Shown here: piece after piece, positions 12,165 through 63,959 of the stretch
Layout of the letters: each line of letters opens with the position of its first letter
Numbering within the stretch: the stretch's first letter is position 1
From: a virus
Taxonomy: Duplodnaviria; Caudoviricetes
DNA length: 64,000 nt
Virus record (IMG/VR): IMGVR_UViG_3300014775_001868
Span: 3,061-67,060 of that record
Direction: 5' to 3' (one strand)
Translations under genes and position numbers: made by a program
The notes under the pieces: model-generated
What the model was told of the DNA's origin: nothing
The model's input: the letters and a program-made list of their open reading frames with translations, nothing else
The model's database searches: none

Positions 12165-15100
12165 ATGAAATATCCTAAAATAACTTCTGCTACATCAGTA
12201 CCAATAGTGTATAACAGAACAATTCAAGAGTTAGCAAATGATGTTAACGCTATGAATTATAGATTTATTGGGAGTAGATATATATCACCTATTGTTTTTA
12301 ATAGAAAAAAATTAGAACCAATTTATTGTTTTGGTTTTACAAATAACCCTTTTGGTACTTTAATAGAAAATAGATCTTATATTTATATACCAGTAGAAAA
12401 TTTAGATTTAGTAAAAGAAAAAGTATTAAATTATGAAGTTATTAATATATTAGAAAATACAAGAGAAATAAAATATCCTATAGCACCAACTTTTTTTAGA
12501 CACTCAATAGAAAGATATGAATTTGTTTATTATTCTAATATAGATAGAAATTATGAATTACCACAAGAAATAAGATCTTATGATGATCTATCCCCTTTAT
12601 CTCATCCTTTTTATCCTTCTTTATTTTTTACTGGTAAAACAGCTATATTACATAATAAAGAAATAATATATGAATATGTTGAATTAAGTGATTGGTTTGA
12701 ATTAGAAGGAAACTTATATGTTAGTCCTATAAGACCTAAAGGATTAGATAATTTCTTTCCTGAGTCTATTTTAGATTATACTTCTATTTCTACTATCTAT
12801 AATAGAGATGATGTATGTAGTGATTTATATTGTTTAATATCAAAAAATAATTTAATTATTAATCAAACAGTATCTTCTATTATCACTGAATTAAGTGATT
12901 ATGAGATAGGTATTCCTGAAATTGATATTCAATATTGTGATACTAGTGATAATGTTTCTATTATAAAAATAAATAATGTTATTTATGAATCTAAAGAAGG
13001 TCCTATTTCATATAAAAGACCGGCTGAAAATATAATTGAAATATATGATTCAACAGGATTAATAAAAACAGTTAATTTAGATGAATATAAATTAGAAAAA
13101 AGAATAGAAGGAGCTAATGAAAATCAAACTTATTTTGATTCTTCTTATATATTAACTACATTATTAGTACAAGATAAATCTGTTACTTTAAATAATTCTA
13201 GTATTAGATATTTAATAGAACCTCAATATGGTGATTATAAATATATAAAATATTCAGAAATAGGAATAATAAATAAATTATATGAATCAGATTGTCAGAT
13301 AGATATTATTTATGATAATGGTACTAAAAGTGTTTCCACTACAAATGGTCCTTTATCTTATGAATTAGTATCAGAAACTAATGATGGTTGTGATGTAGAT
13401 TTTAAAGGTAACTTTATAGAATCTATAAGTTATTCAGGAAAGAAAAATAGTTATACTTATCCATCTTTTAGTTTTGTAGGAGGGAAAGCTTATACTATTA
13501 TTGCTAAAGGTAGTTACACTTTTAGTTCTAATCCTAATTGGGGGGCTGATGGTAATTATCATTTTAATAATGGCACTTTAAATGGAAGTAGTGGCGGTTT
13601 AAGAAATACACTTGGTATTGAATTTTATAATCCTAATCTTCCTTATAATTCGGAACATATATATCAACATTGTTTCATTTCTCCTATTTCAGGTAGTATA
13701 GGATTTAAATGTGGTGATTCCTCTTATGGTGATAATACAGGAGGAATGACAGTAGAATTTTATGAAGGTAGACAACTATTAGGTAATCAAATAAATATTT
13801 ATGATGATACAGGTTTAATTCAATCAGAATATATAGCTGATAATTCTAATATTTTAATTAATACTTATGAATGTATCCCCACTCAAAATAAAATAATTAT
13901 TGATTGGGGAAATGATGATATAGAAGTTATTAACGGTGGAACTTATTATACTTTTAATCTAACTTTAGGTGGTTGGTGGATTTTATATCAAGAGACTTTA
14001 GAAAATTGTGATAAAAGAACAGTTATTATTAAAGTAAATCCAGATGGAACTTTATCACTTAATAAAGAAATAGTTGATCCAATTAATTATCAATATTTAT
14101 CTTTTAATAGTATAGATTGGGAAAAAGAAGGATTAGGAGTTTTATTAAATAATTTAGATGATGATTATTTTATAAATATATTAAAAGATGGTCCCGCTGA
14201 TATAAATGATATATCTATAAATAATATTACTAATGATACGATAGATAATGCTTTATTAGCGACTAATAGTACTATTAAAGATAATATATATTATTTAAAT
14301 TTAAATAAAGTTTCTAATATAGATGGTACTACTGAATTCTTTAGTAATTTAAATGGTTTTATATCTAAATGTGATGGTACTGGAAATATAAAAGATATAT
14401 ATAGAAATAATGAAAGAATAGATTCTTATGAAGTTATTTATACAGATTCATTAGATTATAGTCAACCTATATTTCAATATATAGTTAGACAATATACAGT
14501 AGTTGTATCTTTAGAAACACAAGAAACATCTATAAGATATATAGAAGATAAAAATCAATTAGGAGATGGTTTCTCTTATCTTTCTGTCCCATTATCAGAA
14601 CTTTTAATTCCAAATATAACTACTGATATTTCCCCTAGTGCTTATGAGTTAGATGTATTTGGAGATACAGGTTTAGAAGAAAAATTAGTATTTGAAAATG
14701 AACCTGGAACAGTTACAGTAGAAGCTTATAAATATTTACTTGATATCTTTTATGAATGTAAAAAATATACTGAAAGATTAGTATTTACAGAAAAACCTGT
14801 ATTAGTAGAAGAATTACCTAAATTAAATTATAGTTTAGTTTTTGAATCTATATTAGAAGAATATCCATATTTAATGGAAAGAGAATATGTAGGAAAATTT
14901 ACAGGTAATTATTTATATAAAGATGGTGTTTATTTCTTTGAATTTGATAGAAAAGATGATTCTACTTTTTTAGTTCCTTATTATCCTAAATTAAAAGCAA
15001 AAGAATTTTATAATTTTTATAATGGATCAGATCCAGATTTAATACCGACTTATATAGATATAAATAGTTCTGAAAAAGATTTATATTTACATTCAGATTT

Positions 15101-15749
15101 TCATAGAGAAATAAAAACCTATGAAGAAAGTTCTATCATAGATGATTTAAATTTAGGACAAGTTTTAGTATATTCAGATCCTACTCCTGTGACTTCTTTA
15201 ATAGGAGGGACTATTGCAGATGGAGATGAAACAACAATTCATTTTCATGATGAGGTAGGTTTATTAGAAGTAGGAGAGATACCTTTAGAAGAATGTAAAG
15301 GTGTAATAGAATTTGATTTATCATCTATTAATATAATAAATCCTGTATTTATATTAGAATTAGAAGTTTATAAAGAAGGTGGTCTATTTAATACTTTAAA
15401 TAATAGATTATCAGATACTACTATAAAAGTTTTATTATATGAAGGGGATCTTTCTTTAACTGAAAGTGATTTTAATATAACAACAATAGATTTAAATTAT
15501 ACATTTACTACTAGTAATTTAACTGAAGGTCAATTTGTCACTTTAGATATATCTGATGGTATTAATACTATTAGAAATAATACAGATATTATTGGTATAA
15601 GATTAGAAGATCAAAGAGAAATATTAGGAGAATGTACTCAAGATACTTGCACAGCTATTACTTTCAAAAATGTTAGAGTATTAGTGGTAGATAATCAAGG
15701 AACATATGTTCCGATAGATTCTTTAAATTATGATTTAATAATTAGTTAA
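12165..15749 (+). CDS. large virion/fibre-associated protein with possible carbohydrate-binding module
   Basis: 1194 aa, beta-rich; contains GDSSYGDNTGGMTVEFY, reminiscent of the LecA/PA-IL lectin motif. Confidence 0.45.
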   Translation: MKYPKITSATSVPIVYNRTIQELANDVNAMNYRFIGSRYISPIVFNRKKLEPIYCFGFTNNPFGTLIENRSYIYIPVENLDLVKEKVLNYEVINILENTREIKYPIAPTFFRHSIERYEFVYYSNIDRNYELPQEIRSYDDLSPLSHPFYPSLFFTGKTAILHNKEIIYEYVELSDWFELEGNLYVSPIRPKGLDNFFPESILDYTSISTIYNRDDVCSDLYCLISKNNLIINQTVSSIITELSDYEIGIPEIDIQYCDTSDNVSIIKINNVIYESKEGPISYKRPAENIIEIYDSTGLIKTVNLDEYKLEKRIEGANENQTYFDSSYILTTLLVQDKSVTLNNSSIRYLIEPQYGDYKYIKYSEIGIINKLYESDCQIDIIYDNGTKSVSTTNGPLSYELVSETNDGCDVDFKGNFIESISYSGKKNSYTYPSFSFVGGKAYTIIAKGSYTFSSNPNWGADGNYHFNNGTLNGSSGGLRNTLGIEFYNPNLPYNSEHIYQHCFISPISGSIGFKCGDSSYGDNTGGMTVEFYEGRQLLGNQINIYDDTGLIQSEYIADNSNILINTYECIPTQNKIIIDWGNDDIEVINGGTYYTFNLTLGGWWILYQETLENCDKRTVIIKVNPDGTLSLNKEIVDPINYQYLSFNSIDWEKEGLGVLLNNLDDDYFINILKDGPADINDISINNITNDTIDNALLATNSTIKDNIYYLNLNKVSNIDGTTEFFSNLNGFISKCDGTGNIKDIYRNNERIDSYEVIYTDSLDYSQPIFQYIVRQYTVVVSLETQETSIRYIEDKNQLGDGFSYLSVPLSELLIPNITTDISPSAYELDVFGDTGLEEKLVFENEPGTVTVEAYKYLLDIFYECKKYTERLVFTEKPVLVEELPKLNYSLVFESILEEYPYLMEREYVGKFTGNYLYKDGVYFFEFDRKDDSTFLVPYYPKLKAKEFYNFYNGSDPDLIPTYIDINSSEKDLYLHSDFHREIKTYEESSIIDDLNLGQVLVYSDPTPVTSLIGGTIADGDETTIHFHDEVGLLEVGEIPLEECKGVIEFDLSSINIINPVFILELEVYKEGGLFNTLNNRLSDTTIKVLLYEGDLSLTESDFNITTIDLNYTFTTSNLTEGQFVTLDISDGINTIRNNTDIIGIRLEDQREILGECTQDTCTAITFKNVRVLVVDNQGTYVPIDSLNYDLIIS

Positions 15750-15756
15750 ATATAAT

Positions 15757-16239
15757 ATGTTATCAACTTATTGTACAGAAATCACAACTGCTATTTTATC
15801 TGACTATATTCGAGTTAATCTAATAGCAATTCTTATTAATGATGAAGATTTAGGATATACAGATGAACCTACTCCTTTAGAATTATATAATCGAAAATTA
15901 TTAACTATGGATTATATAATCACAAAAGAGTTAACTTTAAATGGAGGATATAGTCGAGCTATATGTACTATAGATTCTATTGAATTAGAGAGTGAAAATA
16001 ATAGAGCAAGATTATTTACAAGAGCTGAATTTAATCCTACAGGACAATATGATCCAGCTACTCATGTTGTATATGTTTGTAGAGCTAATTTAGTAGGGGC
16101 TGATCCTATTATTAATGGTAATAATAGAGGAGATAATATAGGAAAAGTTATTAAAGTAGTCCCTTTAGAAAATGCTCCTATAACTCTTATTACTCCTATT
16201 CCTTATATTTATTTAGCCGATATTTCTATTAGATTCTAA
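15757..16239 (+). CDS. hypothetical structural protein
   Basis: 160-aa ORF in the tail operon. Confidence 0.55.
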   Translation: MLSTYCTEITTAILSDYIRVNLIAILINDEDLGYTDEPTPLELYNRKLLTMDYIITKELTLNGGYSRAICTIDSIELESENNRARLFTRAEFNPTGQYDPATHVVYVCRANLVGADPIINGNNRGDNIGKVIKVVPLENAPITLITPIPYIYLADISIRF

Positions 16240-57660: not shown

Positions 57661-57969
57661 TTACATATAATCTTTTATTTTTTCTTTAAAAGATTCTATG
57701 AAAGCTTGTCTATCACTGTTTTTCAAGAGATTAGAAAGACTAAATTTAATGGTATAAAATAAACCTATAAGTGCTAAGAAATCATCTAAGAAAGGGATAG
57801 CATGAATAACAGCGATAGTAGTAATTAAAACTTGTAAAGATACAAGAACTAAAATGATATAAAAAGTTTGCTTGATTTTAATACTTTTGATAAAAGAAGA
57901 AACAGAAGCTAAATATTTTTTATATTCATCAAAAATATCTTCAGTTTGATTTTCTTTAGTATTTTCCAT
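57661..57969 (-). CDS. curT: CAAD/CURT1-family thylakoid curvature membrane protein
   Basis: VSLQVLITTIAVIHAIPFLDDFLALIGLFYTIKFSLSNLLKNSDRQAF matches the CAAD consensus ISVKILIAVLDAINDIPLL..LQLIG.GYT.WF..RYL.KA..R.EL. Confidence 0.82.
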   Translation of the reverse strand: MENTKENQTEDIFDEYKKYLASVSSFIKSIKIKQTFYIILVLVSLQVLITTIAVIHAIPFLDDFLALIGLFYTIKFSLSNLLKNSDRQAFIESFKEKIKDYM

Positions 57970-58031: not shown

Positions 58032-59594
58032 TTAATTACGATCAAAGAATTGTTCTCTATTAGTAACTTCTACTGAGGGACCTTTAATAGAAGGAAATAA
58101 AAGATTTTTATAAGATTCAGATAATAATCTATAATTAATATGTCCGCCTGGTCTTGAACGTAATTTATAAAAATAATTCATAGTTTTAAAATTGAAACCC
58201 ATTTCAGTATAAGTTTCATAACCATGAGGTAACAAATGTTTTATCCATTCAATTACAGTTAAATTTTGTAATTCTTCTTTTCTTATATCTAAATAATTAA
58301 GAATATTATAATGTAATTCTTTTATTCTTTTTAATAAAGAAATAGCTTGATCTTGTAATTCAAAATCTTTATAATATAAAGCTTGAATAAAATTATATTT
58401 TATATCTAAGAAATAATAATCTTCTAATAAAGGACTAAATCTAGAGATAGATCTATGTCTATTAAAATCTTTTAAAGAACCTATATCTAATTTACTACAA
58501 ATAGTATATTGAGAAAAATCAGCTATATTATTTATTTCATTATGATGATTACAATTATTATTTATAATACTTTCAATAAGAGATAAAGATATATCTTTTA
58601 AAGGCCAAGTTTCAAAAGAATAATCTAATAAAAGAGAAAGATATCTATCTAATAAATTTTTATTAATAGTTTTATATAATTTACTACTATTTTTATATTC
58701 AGATCCAACATATTCAAATTCATCAAAGTTAGGATTTTGCATTAATAAAAATTCTCTAACTTGAATAAAGGTATCCCTAATATGATATTTAGGATCACTA
58801 TGTCTAATAAGAGTAGGAGCTTCAGGTATATAACCTAATTCATTTAATTCTTCACAGCCCGCTAATAATTTTAATAATATTAATCCTATTCTTCTATTTA
58901 TATATTCATTAGAACCTCTTAATTCAGATATAACTCTACTCCATAAGCGAGCATTAGTATTTATTAAACCATTAGTGGTACAACCTATAGGTAAAAAATG
59001 TCTAGCACAATCTAATGCTCTTTTAGCTAAACCTGTTTTTTCTTTTTTTGTTTCAGGTTGAAACATTATATTTAATCTATTAGTATAAATATCAATAGAT
59101 TTTTTATATAAATCCATCCAAGAATTAAGAATATTTACATATTCTTCTTGTAATTTAGAATTTAAATTTAAAACTTTAGGTTCTACATAATTCCAATCAT
59201 CAAAAGTAATATATCTAGAACTATTTTCTTGACCCGCTAATACTGGAATTTGATAAAATAATTTCATCATATTTATCATAGGAATATTTTCAAAGAATAC
59301 AAATATTCCTGAAGCCATATCTCCCACTGAAGCATGTCCATATCCATGAAATATAGCTTCCATTTTTTTATTAGCATCTATATTTTTTTGATAAATAGAA
59401 TCTACTATTTGTTCTAAAGGTTTATTATCTCTAGATAATCGGGCTCCAATATAAGCTAATTGAGCTGATCTACTTTGATTTTGTATTGTTAAAATACAAT
59501 TAATTTTAATTCCTGTTTTTTTATCAGTTATAGAAGCAATTCCATATTCAGGATCATATGAAAAATTTAAGAGAGAATCTTTAATATCTAACAT
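58032..59594 (-). CDS. thyX: flavin-dependent thymidylate synthase, tandem two-domain type
   Basis: GHASVGD, QENSSRY and ARHFLP...TNAR in the N-half; FNRHRS, HLLP and LRSRPGGH in the C-half. Confidence 0.88.
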   Translation of the reverse strand: MLDIKDSLLNFSYDPEYGIASITDKKTGIKINCILTIQNQSRSAQLAYIGARLSRDNKPLEQIVDSIYQKNIDANKKMEAIFHGYGHASVGDMASGIFVFFENIPMINMMKLFYQIPVLAGQENSSRYITFDDWNYVEPKVLNLNSKLQEEYVNILNSWMDLYKKSIDIYTNRLNIMFQPETKKEKTGLAKRALDCARHFLPIGCTTNGLINTNARLWSRVISELRGSNEYINRRIGLILLKLLAGCEELNELGYIPEAPTLIRHSDPKYHIRDTFIQVREFLLMQNPNFDEFEYVGSEYKNSSKLYKTINKNLLDRYLSLLLDYSFETWPLKDISLSLIESIINNNCNHHNEINNIADFSQYTICSKLDIGSLKDFNRHRSISRFSPLLEDYYFLDIKYNFIQALYYKDFELQDQAISLLKRIKELHYNILNYLDIRKEELQNLTVIEWIKHLLPHGYETYTEMGFNFKTMNYFYKLRSRPGGHINYRLLSESYKNLLFPSIKGPSVEVTNREQFFDRN

Positions 59595-59615: not shown

Positions 59616-59661
59616 AAAAAAAAATCCAACTTTTTATTTAAATTATAAAAGTTGGATTTTT
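59616..59661. terminator. terminator closing the ubiquitin-like cassette
   Basis: Perfect 15-bp stem AAAAATCCAACTTTT/AAAAGTTGGATTTTT; the A run at 59616-24 gives a U tail on the - strand. Confidence 0.75.
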
Positions 59662-59681: not shown

Positions 59682-60428
59682 TTATATAATAGTAGGTATT
59701 TCTTTAATTTTAATTAAAGTTCCTGTAGGAGTTCTTTTTCCTATTAAATTAAATCCTACATAATTCATAAAGGATTTATCTAAAAGTACTTGAGTAACTT
59801 GAGCTAAAGTAGCACTAGCAGCCATCATATTTGTAGCTAATAATTGGGGTGCATTAACACTATTATAACTACAACTACCAGGATTTAAAGATGGATTAGC
59901 ATTTACTAATTGTGGATATAATTTTAAAGGAGATGGTGTAATTTCTTGATTTTTATCTTTTAACCAACTAATAACTTGACCATCTAATTCAGCATTACCT
60001 GGACTCATAAATAATACCCATTTATTTTGAGATTCTATTGCTTCAATAATTTCTTTTCTAGCATGATCATTATCTACAGCCGCTATACATAAAGTCTTAC
60101 TTCTACGTCCACTTCTTGTATTTAATAACATATAATAATCATTTTTCTTTATATAATTATTGATCGTATTGATAGAAAAATTCTTTTTAATAATTTCTTT
60201 TTCAAATTGTTCAATAATTTTATCTTTTATATATTCAACTTTATATTTAGAAACACCCTCATTTTCAAAACCTCTTTCTATATTTTTATCTTCAATAATA
60301 TCCCCATCAATCAAATTGATTTCTAAATTATTAGGAATAGATTCATTATATAAAAATAATCTAATTAAATTAGTAATTAGATTTGATCCCGTTCCACCTA
60401 AACCAATAATATCTACATGTGTGAACAT
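59682..60428 (-). CDS. ThiF/E1-like activating enzyme (PRTRC ThiF-like)
   Basis: IIGLGGTGS, IDGDIIEDKNIER, AVDNDHAR, PGN..DGQV, candidate catalytic Cys in GSCS, QLLATNMMAA. Confidence 0.9.
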   Translation of the reverse strand: MFTHVDIIGLGGTGSNLITNLIRLFLYNESIPNNLEINLIDGDIIEDKNIERGFENEGVSKYKVEYIKDKIIEQFEKEIIKKNFSINTINNYIKKNDYYMLLNTRSGRRSKTLCIAAVDNDHARKEIIEAIESQNKWVLFMSPGNAELDGQVISWLKDKNQEITPSPLKLYPQLVNANPSLNPGSCSYNSVNAPQLLATNMMAASATLAQVTQVLLDKSFMNYVGFNLIGKRTPTGTLIKIKEIPTII

Positions 60429-61255
60429 TATACTAACTCCTTAAAAAAATCTGAATTATAATAATAATTTAAATTGTGTGGTAAATATATATTTAAAAAA
60501 TCATTTGTATTAAAATTATTTTTTCCATTTACTTTAGTTATAAAATTATATACAAAATTTTTATTAAAACTATAATGTAAATTATTTACATAATTGGGTA
60601 TATCAATACTTATATTTAAAGTTTTTTTATAAAAATCTATTATTTCGTTTAAATGATATAAATTTGTATTTAATACATCAAAAGGTTTTGATCGATCAAA
60701 AAAAAGATATTGATAAAAATCATATATTCTACAATCTTTATAATCAGTATTAAACGGACTATTTAAAATTTTGTTATATATAAATAAATGATTATTAGGA
60801 TCATTAATATAACCTAAACAAAAAGAACCACTATAATCAGTATTAGGTATATTATTTAATAATAAAATTTTATTAGTTTTAGGATCTTCAATAAAGATTT
60901 TAATTTTAGTATTTGTAATATATAACCAATGTTTTGGTAATTTTAAATTAAATTTTAATAAATAATTTTCATCTACTAAATCAAAATCAAAATTACTAAA
61001 ATAATAATAATAGTAATTGCCTCCATATTCAAAACCATAAGATTCTAAATCAACTATTTCAGTAATTTCTTCATCATCTTCTACTTCTATATATGCCTCA
61101 TAATCATCTTCATTCTCATTTCTGACTAAAAAAGTCATAGGATAAATAGTAGGTTCAAATTCATAAAAAAAAGAAAAATGACCATCAATGTAAGTCATTT
61201 TTCTTTTAGAACATAAATTAGAAGGTATTAAATTAATTTTTATTAAATCTTCCAT
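60428..61255 (-). CDS. prokaryotic E2-like protein (family D-like)
   Basis: IPNTDYSGSFCLG...NSPFNTD, i.e. the PN...G.hC.G...S.FN.D signature. Confidence 0.7.
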   Translation of the reverse strand: MEDLIKINLIPSNLCSKRKMTYIDGHFSFFYEFEPTIYPMTFLVRNENEDDYEAYIEVEDDEEITEIVDLESYGFEYGGNYYYYYFSNFDFDLVDENYLLKFNLKLPKHWLYITNTKIKIFIEDPKTNKILLLNNIPNTDYSGSFCLGYINDPNNHLFIYNKILNSPFNTDYKDCRIYDFYQYLFFDRSKPFDVLNTNLYHLNEIIDFYKKTLNISIDIPNYVNNLHYSFNKNFVYNFITKVNGKNNFNTNDFLNIYLPHNLNYYYNSDFFKELV

Positions 61256-61260
61256 TTAAT

Positions 61261-62292
61261 TTATAAAAAATAAAAAGGGTCTCTATAATCTTTATTAATT
61301 TTTCCATTTAATCTTTCTTTTAAATTTTCTTTAAATAAATTAACTATTTTATTTTCATCTAATAAATTTGTATCTATATTTAAATCTTCACAAAAAATAA
61401 TCAAATCTGAAATTGTATCTTGAATATATTTTTCAAGTTGAATATTTTTATCTGTTTTTTGATTAACGTTTGGTTTAAAAGAACTAAAGAAAAAGTCTTC
61501 TGAAGGTTCATCAGAATCGCCGGAATATACAAGAGTATTAAATTCATCAAAATAAAAGTCATCATAAAATTCATCTGAATAAAAAGAAGTGTGATGACTT
61601 GTATAATTATTTTTAAATTTAATTTTTTGAGGTAATCTATTTATAAATCTAGATACTTGTTTAATACAATTAGGATGAAAAGAGGTATCACTTTCAGTAT
61701 CCAAATCTATTAATTCAGAAGCTTCTACATAATTTCTTTCTTTATCCCAAACAATAGAACCTGTAATAACATAAGTTCTTTTTTTTAGATTAATATTACT
61801 AACTAAGATATGTACTCCTTCTTTATTTAATTCTTCTTTATCATCAGTACCTGAAAAATTACTAAGAGTTAATTTTCCATGACTATGACTACTACCAAAG
61901 TTTATCCAATTTTGAAGCTCTAAATCTTTTTCTGGATTAAAAGTTTCTCCTGTCAATATATCAATTTGATTTGTTTGATCTTGATGAGTAACAGAACCAG
62001 TAGTTACTTGTTGTTTAGGTACACCTACTTTCCATTCATTAGTATTTTTTTCTTTATAAAATTCAACTCTCACTTCGCTATCAAATTCTTTAGCAAAATG
62101 AAAATATAAATCAACAATAGCTGACCATAAATCAGCTGGAATTTTTTTTCTATTATCTAAGAATTTAATATCTCTTAAATTTTTTTTAGGAACTTGAGGA
62201 TTTAAATTAACAGTTTTTTTAAATACTTGACATAAATCTCCTATATTTTTAATAGCTACAAAAGTGGTATCAGTAGTAAAAACATTATTCAT
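61261..62292 (-). CDS. JAB/MPN metalloprotease (Prok-JAB, PRTRC protein A-like)
   Basis: KIPADLW, SEV (catalytic Glu), VPKQQVT..SV, GSSHSH...FSGTDD. Confidence 0.88.
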   Translation of the reverse strand: MNNVFTTDTTFVAIKNIGDLCQVFKKTVNLNPQVPKKNLRDIKFLDNRKKIPADLWSAIVDLYFHFAKEFDSEVRVEFYKEKNTNEWKVGVPKQQVTTGSVTHQDQTNQIDILTGETFNPEKDLELQNWINFGSSHSHGKLTLSNFSGTDDKEELNKEGVHILVSNINLKKRTYVITGSIVWDKERNYVEASELIDLDTESDTSFHPNCIKQVSRFINRLPQKIKFKNNYTSHHTSFYSDEFYDDFYFDEFNTLVYSGDSDEPSEDFFFSSFKPNVNQKTDKNIQLEKYIQDTISDLIIFCEDLNIDTNLLDENKIVNLFKENLKERLNGKINKDYRDPFYFL

Positions 62293-63514
62293 TATCAGGT
62301 AACCTCTCTAATTTAAAATAAAATTCATCTTCTTCTTTAAAAACGTTAATAGGTATTCTTTTATTTTTTTCTATATCTTTAAAATAAAAATCATTTTCAT
62401 CGATATGAATATAAGAATTATATTCTTTAGAAACACCTACAATATTTTTATCTAATATTTTTCCTTTAGTAATATTTGAATAATCATCATTTAACCAATT
62501 AATTATTTCTGTTTTTATTATTTCACAAAGTTCTTCATGTTCAGAAAAAGAGGCTTTACTATTATAAATAGTTCTAAAATCATCTCCATAGCTTTTTTTT
62601 ATACTAACATCTGCATTTACATTCCCACTTAAATCATCATTAAAAAAGCTTTCCCAGAAATAATTATAAATAAGATGTCCGCTAAAACTAGAATAATTAC
62701 CTAAACATATAGCACCATTTTTATAACAATTAGGAGTAGGTATATAAAAATTATTATAATTTTTATCAAAAGCTAAAATACTATACTTACTATTAATTAA
62801 ATTTTCTATAAATATATGTTGTTCTAAATGAATATCTTTTTTTCTAGTATTAGAATCATGACCTTTTGGACATTGACGATCATAAAAAATAGGAACACCT
62901 GAACAGAAATTTCTTTTATATGAAGCTCTTTTATATTCTTTAATAGTTTCTCTATATAATCTTTTTAATTGAGTAATATCATAAGATAATTGAGTTAAAT
63001 AATTTCTTATAAAATTTAATTTAGTTTTATCATTATCTTTTGCTTTTACATCTATAAGAATTAAATTTTTAATAATAGAAGCTTCTGATAATTTTTTTAT
63101 TATAGATTCTAAATAAATTTCAATTTTTTCTTTAGAGATATTTCGTTTTTGTTCTATCGCTGCTTTAGAAAAAATAGGAAGCGGCTTTAAAAGATTATAT
63201 AAATGAGATATTAATAATGAAGAGACTTGTATATCTAATGATTCAAATTCTTTTTGTAAATCATAAATATTTAATTTTATACAAGGGATTTTAGTTTCTT
63301 TATGATAAAAATAATTAAATTTAGATAAATCTATTTTAAAATTAAAAGGATAATCAAGATTAAGTTCACATTTATTGCAAGGAATTATAGAATCCGAATA
63401 GAATTTAATTTCTTTAGAAAAAGATCCAAATTTATGAATAAAGAATTTATCTTCTATAGCATAAGTATCTATTCTTTCTGTTGGAAATAATTTAAATTTA
63501 CTAATTATAGACAT
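62285..63514 (-). CDS. prokaryotic E2-like protein (family D-like) with long N-terminal extension
   Basis: YIPTPNCYKNGAICLG...FWESFFNDDL in the C-terminal third. Confidence 0.75.
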   Translation of the reverse strand: MSIISKFKLFPTERIDTYAIEDKFFIHKFGSFSKEIKFYSDSIIPCNKCELNLDYPFNFKIDLSKFNYFYHKETKIPCIKLNIYDLQKEFESLDIQVSSLLISHLYNLLKPLPIFSKAAIEQKRNISKEKIEIYLESIIKKLSEASIIKNLILIDVKAKDNDKTKLNFIRNYLTQLSYDITQLKRLYRETIKEYKRASYKRNFCSGVPIFYDRQCPKGHDSNTRKKDIHLEQHIFIENLINSKYSILAFDKNYNNFYIPTPNCYKNGAICLGNYSSFSGHLIYNYFWESFFNDDLSGNVNADVSIKKSYGDDFRTIYNSKASFSEHEELCEIIKTEIINWLNDDYSNITKGKILDKNIVGVSKEYNSYIHIDENDFYFKDIEKNKRIPINVFKEEDEFYFKLERLPDNE

Positions 63515-63537
63515 TTTTATTAACTATAAATTATAAT

Positions 63538-63571
63538 AAAAAAGAGAAATATATATTTTATATTCCTCTTT
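63538..63571 (-). terminator. attenuating terminator/stabilising hairpin between Ubl and E2
   Basis: The - strand reads AAAGAGGAATATA-aaata-TATATTTCTCTTT (13 bp, one G.U pair) followed by more T. Confidence 0.55.
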
Positions 63572-63590
63572 CAAGTTTAAGAATTTAATA

Positions 63591-63884
63591 TTAACCTTTA
63601 TCACCCATATTAGTTAGAATATTATAAGTAACTCCAGCTTCAGCGATAGTATCACCTGGAATAACAATATAATTACCATCTTCATATTTACGATAGGTAG
63701 TAATAGTAGATGCATTAATACCTAAAGTATCTTCATTTTCTTGAAAGAGTTCAGCTACTGTTTGTCCTTCCTCAAAAGGAACTTGAGTTTTACTAACAAT
63801 TTCAAGAAATACCGTATCATTATCATTAAGATCGTTGTCAACAGATTGATTAAGTTGAGAAGCTAATTGATCAAAAATACTCAT
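63591..63884 (-). CDS. ubiquitin-like (beta-grasp) protein, Prok_Ub/PRTRC protein C-like
   Basis: 97 aa; GQTVAELF helix; ends ...YNILTNMGDKG-stop; heads the E2-JAB-E2-E1 cluster. Confidence 0.75.
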   Translation of the reverse strand: MSIFDQLASQLNQSVDNDLNDNDTVFLEIVSKTQVPFEEGQTVAELFQENEDTLGINASTITTYRKYEDGNYIVIPGDTIAEAGVTYNILTNMGDKG

Positions 63885-63931: not shown

Positions 63932-63959
63932 AAAAGCTGACTAAATTTAGTCAGCTTTT
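63932..63959. promoter_or_regulatory. 28-bp perfect palindrome upstream of the Ubl gene (terminator or operator)
   Basis: AAAAGCTGACTAAATTTAGTCAGCTTTT is its own reverse complement. Confidence 0.6.

Follow-up and report, generated by a model that had tools for sequence, protein, structure and literature searches.

A tailed-phage gene cassette with the predicted parts of a ubiquitin-like conjugation system, related to the PRTRC modules of plasmids

Conjugation systems built on ubiquitin-like (Ubl) proteins are so far known in bacteria either as host immunity against phages, in the Bil and type II CBASS (antiphage signalling by means of cyclic oligonucleotides) systems, or as modules that are uncharacterised, in the PRTRC and Bub systems. 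Operons combining an activating enzyme (E1), a conjugating enzyme (E2), a JAB peptidase and a Ubl were described by Iyer et al. 2006 (PMC1779556), and the TAPI/TAPK proteins of the lambda type form a Ubl-JAB pair (PMC1779556). The E1 of Bil, BilD, is a multi-domain protein, and Bub (formerly 6E/DUF6527) operons encode a divergent bacterial set of Ubl, E1 and E2, joined in type I by a JAB; Bub works with fused proteins, with oxyester intermediates on Ser and Tyr and with the DUF6527 protease (PMC11601596). The subject of this report is a cassette of five genes near the right end of a 64,000-nucleotide stretch of phage DNA (the window), which comprises bases 3061-67060 of the 67,060-base IMG/VR virus record IMGVR_UViG_3300014775_001868. 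The cassette is probably a Ubl conjugation system owned by the phage itself and a divergent viral offshoot of the E1/E2/JAB/Ubl module of the PRTRC type, as judged from the conserved residues of its proteins, the predicted fold of its tag and the recurrence of the set on other phage contigs.

The five open reading frames are co-oriented on the minus strand, lie head to tail from 63884 to 59682 and are flanked by two terminator-like hairpins, all five at the coordinates given in the initial annotation, which had been made from the sequence of the window. The features of the cassette, in the direction of transcription, are as follows.

63932-63959, minus strand: terminator-like hairpin of the upstream gene, forming the 5' boundary of the cassette (12-bp stem and T tract, z score -3.9).
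63591-63884, minus strand: ubiquitin-like tag, 97 amino acids (aa), with a beta-grasp model (AlphaFold2, Foldseek) and the C-terminal residues GDKG.
63540-63572, minus strand: hairpin and U tract, probable partial terminator or attenuator (z score -3.0).
62285-63514, minus strand: E2-like protein a (E2a), 409 aa, with Prok-E2_D matches in the family and an invariant N-x7-C.
61261-62292, minus strand: JAB/JAMM metallopeptidase, 343 aa, with invariant E, HxH, S and D and with Prok-JAB and PRTRC_A matches in relatives.
60428-61255, minus strand: probable E2-like protein b (E2b), 275 aa, with the motif PNTDYSGSFCLG...FNTD.
59682-60428, minus strand: minimal E1 (ThiF/UBA5-type), 248 aa, above the ThiF cut-off, with an invariant predicted adenylation site and Cys186.
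59620-59661, minus strand: terminator-like hairpin closing the cassette before the ThyX gene (15-bp stem, U9, z score -3.6).

The enzyme genes are tightly packed, with an 8-nt overlap between E2a and JAB, a 5-nt gap between JAB and E2b and a 1-nt overlap between E2b and E1 (TAATG), just as the initial annotation had them (overlapping or 5 nt apart). The palindrome (63932-63959) and terminator (59616-59661) named there as boundaries both correspond to hairpins with T/U tracts, the second of which is overlooked by a simple scan because its stem contains few G-C pairs. A hairpin with a U tract also lies directly after the tag gene on three contigs with related cassettes (L002, L007 and L009), whose sequences there are unrelated and of very different G+C content. 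Given this recurrence, it is a reasonable inference that the 63540-63572 hairpin acts as a partial terminator, giving more tag message than enzyme message.

The E1 exceeds the cut-off of Pfam ThiF (PF00899; 40.8 bits against 28.1, E 1.8e-10), and within NCBIfam it matches PRTRC_ThiF best (E 9.3e-19), where its 67.7 bits fall under the cut-off of 144.75. Across 12 relatives the residues G9, G11, G12, D41, D43, N49, R52, K63, D119, R124 and C186 are invariant, as are the GLGGTGS motif and the GSC cysteine, and the protein thus has by its sequence a complete predicted adenylation site, with the nucleotide- and Mg-binding residues and the arginine finger, together with one cysteine. Its best solved sequence relative is human UBA5 (5e-15, residues 5-225), and further solved relatives include SAE2, UBA6, MccB (1.6e-10), TcdA, ThiF and MoeB, as well as PaaA (4e-7) and Uba4. 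Cys186 aligns with the only cysteine of the UBA5 crossover loop, in the segment REGVCAAS, which we take to be the catalytic C250, and is a candidate for the thioester cysteine of the crossover loop. UBA5 bears a four-cysteine zinc site; the window E1 holds only two cysteines and therefore has no zinc site of the ThiF/MoeB/UBA5 kind. Like the window E1, UBA5 has a single adenylation domain, but the C-terminal extension with which it binds UFM1 and UFC1 has no counterpart in the window E1, whose partner E2 is of the Prok-E2_D kind and not UFC1.

The tag begins with a disordered acidic N-terminus of about 22 residues, continues into a beta-grasp core and ends with GDKG directly at the stop codon. 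Its AlphaFold2 model, built from an 11-sequence alignment, has a predicted local distance difference test (pLDDT) score of 79 and the strand order beta-beta-alpha-beta-beta-beta. The best Foldseek matches of this model in the PDB are all beta-grasp proteins, namely the Raf Ras-binding domain, TtuB, ubiquitin, NEDD8 and SUMO (probability 1.00, TM score up to 0.7 when normalised by the target), and in a viral structure library nearly all of its named top matches are ubiquitins. The beta-grasp fold that the initial annotation had named as a check on the 97-aa protein is thus what the model predicts. Within the family of 11 homologues K96 is invariant and G97 nearly so, with KG kept in 10 of 11; the tags of the window, L002 and L009 stop at this glycine, the L005 tag ends Lys-Ala, and seven of the 11 carry exactly one residue beyond KG (I, I, N, C, S, N and R, in L008:2299-2586, L015:4447-4770, L007:7485-7772, L014, L016, L013 and L011). 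The latter appear to be precursor forms that would need trimming, and the overall C-terminal pattern is that expected of a modifier needing a free C-terminal glycine. A 95-aa protein of the contig L003 was also considered as a tag and rejected, as it is not homologous.

The presence of MccB and PaaA among the solved relatives of the E1, and the Gly-Asn ending of some tag homologues, would also suit a peptide or small-molecule adenylation of the MccB/PaaA type, in which the C-terminus of the small protein is modified and not conjugated to other proteins. The glycine may be followed, however, by I, N, C, S or R, or by no residue at all, as in the window, which argues against an Asn-specific substrate; the small protein is modelled as a folded beta-grasp domain, and the N-terminal peptide clamp of MccB is absent from the 248-aa E1. 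This alternative is considered highly improbable. A second alternative follows from the tag model, which fits TtuB nearly as well as ubiquitin, and from the resemblance of the E1 to ThiF, MoeB and Uba4 as well: the E1 could adenylate the beta-grasp protein for conversion into a thiocarboxylate donating sulfur to a nucleotide, a tRNA base or a cofactor, as in ThiS/ThiF, MoaD/MoeB and TtuB/TtuC. The adjacency of the cassette to the genes of ThyX and ribonucleotide reductase (RNR) would fit such a sulfur carrier, as would a PP-loop ATPase gene (ATP_bind_3) about 4 kb upstream in L002. The PP-loop gene is, however, absent from the related P0005 contig, and no rhodanese, cysteine desulfurase, acceptor of the ThiG/MoaE/TtuA type or Fe-S enzyme is found in or beside the cassette in the window, L002 or P0005. 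Moreover, an E2-like protein with an invariant cysteine and the JAB, both superfluous for a pure sulfur relay, are kept with the E1 in all relatives that reach far enough. With no sulfur donor or acceptor gene alongside, and with E2 and JAB conserved as part of the cassette, a sulfur-carrier role is quite unlikely, and a conjugation system remains the preferred reading.

Removal of a Ubl from its targets would fall to the JAB protein, for which an exhaustive search returned 383 representative homologues. The residues E73, H136, H138, S147 and D150 are invariant across 58 relatives, with one residue more between HxH and S than in the canonical x7. Twenty-six of the 58 relatives match Pfam Prok-JAB (PF14464, best 7e-9) and 26 match NCBIfam PRTRC_A (best 2.1e-10); the JAB of the window has itself diverged too far to match any Pfam or NCBIfam family. 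The C-terminal part of about 120 aa is variable. In the JAB proteins of this family, including that of the window (61261-61290, minus strand), a variable acidic region is followed by a short aromatic tail at the C-terminus (DPFYFL, NYFV, MFYSEY or DPFYVYGGA), which may be a docking peptide.

The E2a family is present in every related cassette extending far enough, as found by iterative searches over the fetched loci. Its invariant residues are N262, C270, G272, F291 and N292, with Cys270 as candidate catalytic cysteine in the arrangement N262-x7-C270-x-G272, and the spacing N-x4-G-x2-C-L is that of the eukaryotic HPN...C active site. E2a itself aligns with Prok-E2_D over the catalytic segment (E 0.025, 14.8 bits against a cut-off of 25), while eight of 13 family members match Prok-E2_D (E up to 0.05, best 1.2e-6) and one of the 13 matches PRTRC_B (0.0068). 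Upstream of the catalytic core E2a has the cysteines C46, C49, C204 and C215, with a helical insert of about 150 aa between the two pairs in the window clade; a CxxC plus C-x9-11-C set occurs at this position in seven of the 13 family proteins, and a zinc site formed by the four cysteines is possible. On this evidence E2a is assigned to the E2 family by sequence, with a putative ubiquitin-conjugating (UBC) fold.

For E2b the evidence is weak. Both E2-like proteins contain the motif PN..G..C.G...FN.D, which aligns them in BLASTP (E 0.003), and a profile comparison of E2b with the E2a family by hhalign gives an E-value of 0.0037 but a probability of only 9%. A composite pattern of the motif, run over 779 open reading frames of the window and the fetched loci, matched only the E2a family and E2b and gave 0 matches in 50 shuffles, which is weak support as the pattern was written after both proteins had been seen. 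Core fragments of the E2-like proteins yielded non-significant PDB matches only; those of the E2b fragment were just two, both eukaryotic E2s aligned at HPN...C, which is no more than suggestive. The protein Atlas yields leads only: E2b has a feature score of 0.94 to viral clusters with Prok-E2_D in 14-15% of their members, and its top structural neighbour belongs to a Prok-E2_D cluster (TM scores 0.44/0.52). Word-based homologue searches with the single protein and with its alignment found E2b in its own clade only, which consists of the window, L002 and, with a partial copy, L006. To call E2b an E2 outright was rejected, as the hidden Markov model (HMM) of the E2a core misses it and the hhalign probability is low; it is a probable paralogue of the E2-like kind. 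A further close relative, L020:42-1671 (E1 45-46% identical), has no E2b, its JAB gene running straight into the E1 gene with an overlap, and E2b is therefore dispensable within the clade. The 306-aa gene upstream of the E1 in L020 was considered as an E2b candidate and rejected, since it encodes the JAB. The motifs listed in the initial annotation (GDKG, PN..G..C.G...FN.D, E/HxH/S..D of the JAB, GxGGxG and the GSC cysteine) are thus all present, those of the E1 and the JAB being invariant in relatives. Its order Ubl-E2-JAB-E2-E1 holds for the tag, E2a, JAB and E1; the second E2 does not stand at the same strength, as it draws on the motif, a marginal profile match and the Atlas leads only.

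Among described systems, PRTRC (NCBIfam TIGR03734-03742) is the closest. It shares with the cassette the four core parts and a small single-domain E1, it provides the nearest named family for each of the cassette enzymes, and it is likewise uncharacterised. None of its cut-offs is reached by the E1, JAB, E2a or tag of the window. Genes for ParB or for PRTRC proteins D, E and F were not seen in the window, which extends upstream of the tag gene for just 116 bases before the contig ends, or in the longer relative L002, and no Pfam match to ParB occurs within 6 kb upstream in the L002 and P0005 contigs. Whereas PRTRC belongs to plasmids and integrative elements, the present cassette is carried by lytic-type tailed phages beside genes of nucleotide metabolism, and the window clade has a second E2-like gene. 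Membership in PRTRC was rejected, as the cut-offs are missed and ParB is not seen; the cassette is, from the comparison of its genes, a phage-borne variant and a relative of PRTRC and not a member of it.

The Bil systems (BilABCD, types I and II) have the same parts list, with Ubl, E2, JAB and E1 as separate proteins, and a thioester cascade leading to a lysine isopeptide is presumed to be common to Bil and the cassette. In contrast to BilD, the phage E1 is a single adenylation domain of 248 aa with its cysteine in the crossover loop; the nearest families are of the PRTRC type, and the system is encoded by a virus and not by the host. Membership in Bil was rejected on E1 architecture. With type II CBASS the cassette shares E1/E2 chemistry and a JAB peptidase, as Cap2 and Cap3, but Cap2 is an E2-E1 fusion that acts on the C-terminus of the cyclase itself without a separate Ubl, whereas the phage E1 and E2 are separate and have a dedicated beta-grasp tag. 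No nucleotidyltransferase match that would indicate a CD-NTase (the CBASS cyclase) was found among the cassette proteins with Pfam, and the flanking genes encode ThyX, a CAAD protein and RNR; identity with Cap2 was rejected, as there is no E2-E1 fusion. The PADLOC models for E1-E2 proteins gave weak matches on the E1 part only (8.6e-5), and there were no other PADLOC matches. Identity with Bub was rejected in the same manner, since a cysteine in place of Ser or Tyr is invariant in the phage E1 and E2a; the genes are also separate and DUF6527 is absent.

The Bil and CBASS systems bear on two further explanations, both of which place the cassette in the conflict between phages and immunity. As host Bil attaches its tag to the tail proteins of phages, and tagging of this kind is undone by JAB peptidases (PMC11601596; 10.1101/2023.09.04.556158), the cassette could serve mainly to neutralise host Ubl immunity (Bil or CBASS Cap2/Cap3), either with the JAB, which has all its catalytic residues, stripping host tags from phage proteins or with a decoy tag occupying host enzymes. 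For this purpose a deconjugase alone would do, yet the full writer set of E1, E2 and tag is conserved with the JAB across phages of 22-67% G+C, whose diverse hosts are unlikely all to carry Bil, and the phage proteins are closest to PRTRC and not to Bil or Cap2/Cap3; such a counter-defence is unlikely to be the main role. The opposite function, a Bil-like defence cargo that tags and disables competing phages in the same cell, would be in line with the anti-phage role of the sole functionally characterised bacterial Ubl conjugation operons (Bil and type II CBASS; PMC11601596) and with the frequent carriage of defence systems by phages. Against superinfection exclusion of this kind, the PADLOC search yields only the weak E1 similarity, and the cassette has a fixed syntenic position among replication and nucleotide genes with proteins at 44-55% identity, a combination that indicates long vertical inheritance in a lytic-type lineage and not mobile cargo. 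It is accordingly regarded as improbable.

For a conjugation system owned by the phage, a thioester cascade is the most likely mechanism. By analogy with related families, the tag would be translated already ending in glycine and probably in excess, with the hairpin and U tract behind its gene stopping part of the transcripts. The E1, which presumably forms a homodimer as ThiF, MoeB and UBA5 do, would adenylate the C-terminal glycine of the tag with ATP-Mg and then take over the tag as a thioester on Cys186 in the crossover loop. From there the tag would pass to Cys270 of E2a, which would hand it on to target-protein lysines with no separate E3 involved. E2b, in the window clade only, could serve as a second carrier for other targets or as a second relay step. 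The JAB would strip the tag from its targets, which may be host or phage proteins, and in relatives with an extra residue beyond KG it would also expose the glycine.

Several observations weigh against a conjugation system of this kind. The JAB, E2a and tag of the window fall under every curated family cut-off, and for the tag neither the window protein nor its 10 homologues have any Pfam or NCBIfam match, including Prok_Ub/PRTRC_C. The E2 family profile has no significant sequence match in the PDB, and for the E2-like proteins the Atlas models have pLDDT values of 0.46 and 0.36. E2b escapes detection by the HMM of the E2a catalytic core, and its AlphaFold2 model, from a 3-sequence alignment, has a pLDDT of 44. 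No E3 and no target could be identified, and the end of the contig 116 bases upstream of the tag gene leaves room for further partners; the syntenic relative L002 has unrelated small genes upstream of its cassette.

A broader and more tentative proposal, possible but not to be expected, is that tailed phages of many hosts use a virus-specific Ubl writer and eraser that tags host or phage proteins during infection, which would be the first conjugation cascade used by, and not against, bacterial viruses. In this proposal a cascade with two E2s would have arisen in the window clade, E2b acting as another carrier or as a relay of the E3 kind, the four-cysteine module of E2a, perhaps a zinc site, might recognise targets, and a CAAD/CurT-type gene near the cassette would hint at a cyanobacterial host. 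The purposes put forward in the initial annotation, among them tagging of host defence or photosynthesis proteins and interference with host Ubl immunity, are speculative. If phage ownership is correct, a complete set inherited in lytic-type phages would reverse the picture drawn from Bil and type II CBASS by making the virus the writer of the modification. The targets, once found, could show a new way of taking over the host or of maturing virions and would provide a first functional foothold for PRTRC-type modules. The initial annotation had allowed that related phage cassettes might already have been described, but none was found: the literature searched (including PMC1779556, PMC11601596, PMC7824862 and 10.1101/2023.09.04.556158, with subscription journals outside its scope) contains, apart from the lambda-type TAPI/TAPK pair, only systems of bacteria and plasmids, and phage-encoded E1/E2/JAB/Ubl cassettes are undescribed in it.

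In L002, whose E1 is 55% identical, all five genes stand in the same order, again with ThyX and RNR behind them. The 52-kb P0005 contig (E1 46%) has a five-gene arrangement as judged by gene sizes and Pfam only, with one gene split or added before the JAB, and fragments of the arrangement are found in L006 and L017. More distant phage-like contigs (L005 and L007-L016) have the orders tag-JAB-E2-E1 or tag-E2-JAB-E1, with RNR, PIF1 helicase and RNA ligase genes among their neighbours. Four-gene versions were counted on 10 further phage-like contigs. The G+C content of the distant cassette contigs ranges from 30 to 67%, and this wide span indicates that the module has spread over phages of very different hosts. 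On the 135-kb phage-like contig L003 (10001-11925), a longer E1 of 380 aa is preceded by genes for a JAB-like protein of 397 aa and a weakly E2-like protein of 243 aa, and is directly followed by an RVT_1 reverse-transcriptase gene.

The yield of the searches depended strongly on the method. Searched directly with the E1, IMG/VR gave no match, and a tblastn search with the JAB against 50,697 GenBank phages gave none either. Since the JAB sequences of alignment A1 vary too much for a pattern search, the narrower alignment A2 was used, and its pattern scan returned only 1 viral, 0 genome and 8 metagenome loci. Pattern-based scans are insensitive, and such low counts therefore say little about rarity. 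The E1 search of GenBank phages returned four records, and profile HMMs were required for recognising a gene trio in a Bacillus phage. This trio belongs to the cultured jumbo phage vB_BceM_WH1 of Bacillus cereus (L021, LC597490.1 181723-184817), where gp214 matches the E2a-family HMM (3.7e-9), gp215 the JAB HMM (1.2e-16) and gp216 the E1 HMM (1.6e-39); an existing annotation covers gp216 only, as ThiF, and no tag was detected within the flank of gp214-gp216. A 130-kb linear plasmid of Clostridium perfringens (L022, NZ_CP075935.1 41151-44270) has an E2-like gene (core HMM 9e-7) and an E1 (3e-39), with a 127-aa gene ending FFNKG beside them. In total 42 plasmid records match the E1, mostly large non-mobilizable plasmids of Clostridium and Bacillus. 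The presence of relatives in a cultured phage and in Clostridium linear plasmids makes the function of the cassette approachable by experiment.

The source of the window is a large lytic-type tailed phage. Its viral origin, as stated in the initial annotation, is confirmed by the viral record and by the phage genes of the window, which encode a baseplate wedge protein, the large terminase, a helicase and an exonuclease, and further genes encode RecA, PhoH, a gp10-like tail-collar protein and the small and large subunits of RNR. The G+C content is 22-24% throughout, and no tRNA genes were found in the window. The right end of the window is the end of the contig, the record is about 40% complete (CheckV), and the closest relatives of the phage sit on contigs of 184-197 kb. 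The cassette adjoins genes of nucleotide metabolism, a long ThyX and RNR, with a gene for a CAAD/CurT-type membrane protein between these two. The latter protein (57661-57969, minus strand, 102 aa) matches Pfam CAAD above the cut-off (1e-16), and a CAAD gene occupies the equivalent position on the P0005 contig. Its presence hints at a cyanobacterial host, for which a G+C of 22% would be unusually low. ThyX (58032-59594, minus strand) is 520 aa long, about twice the usual length, and has two Thy1 stretches in Pfam; it matches phrog_36506 (1.8e-50), a family specific to phages, and its synteny with the cassette holds in all close relatives. The RNR large-subunit gene of the P0005 contig (genes at 12884-16076) is split by an HNH endonuclease gene and the RNR of L007 contains an intein.

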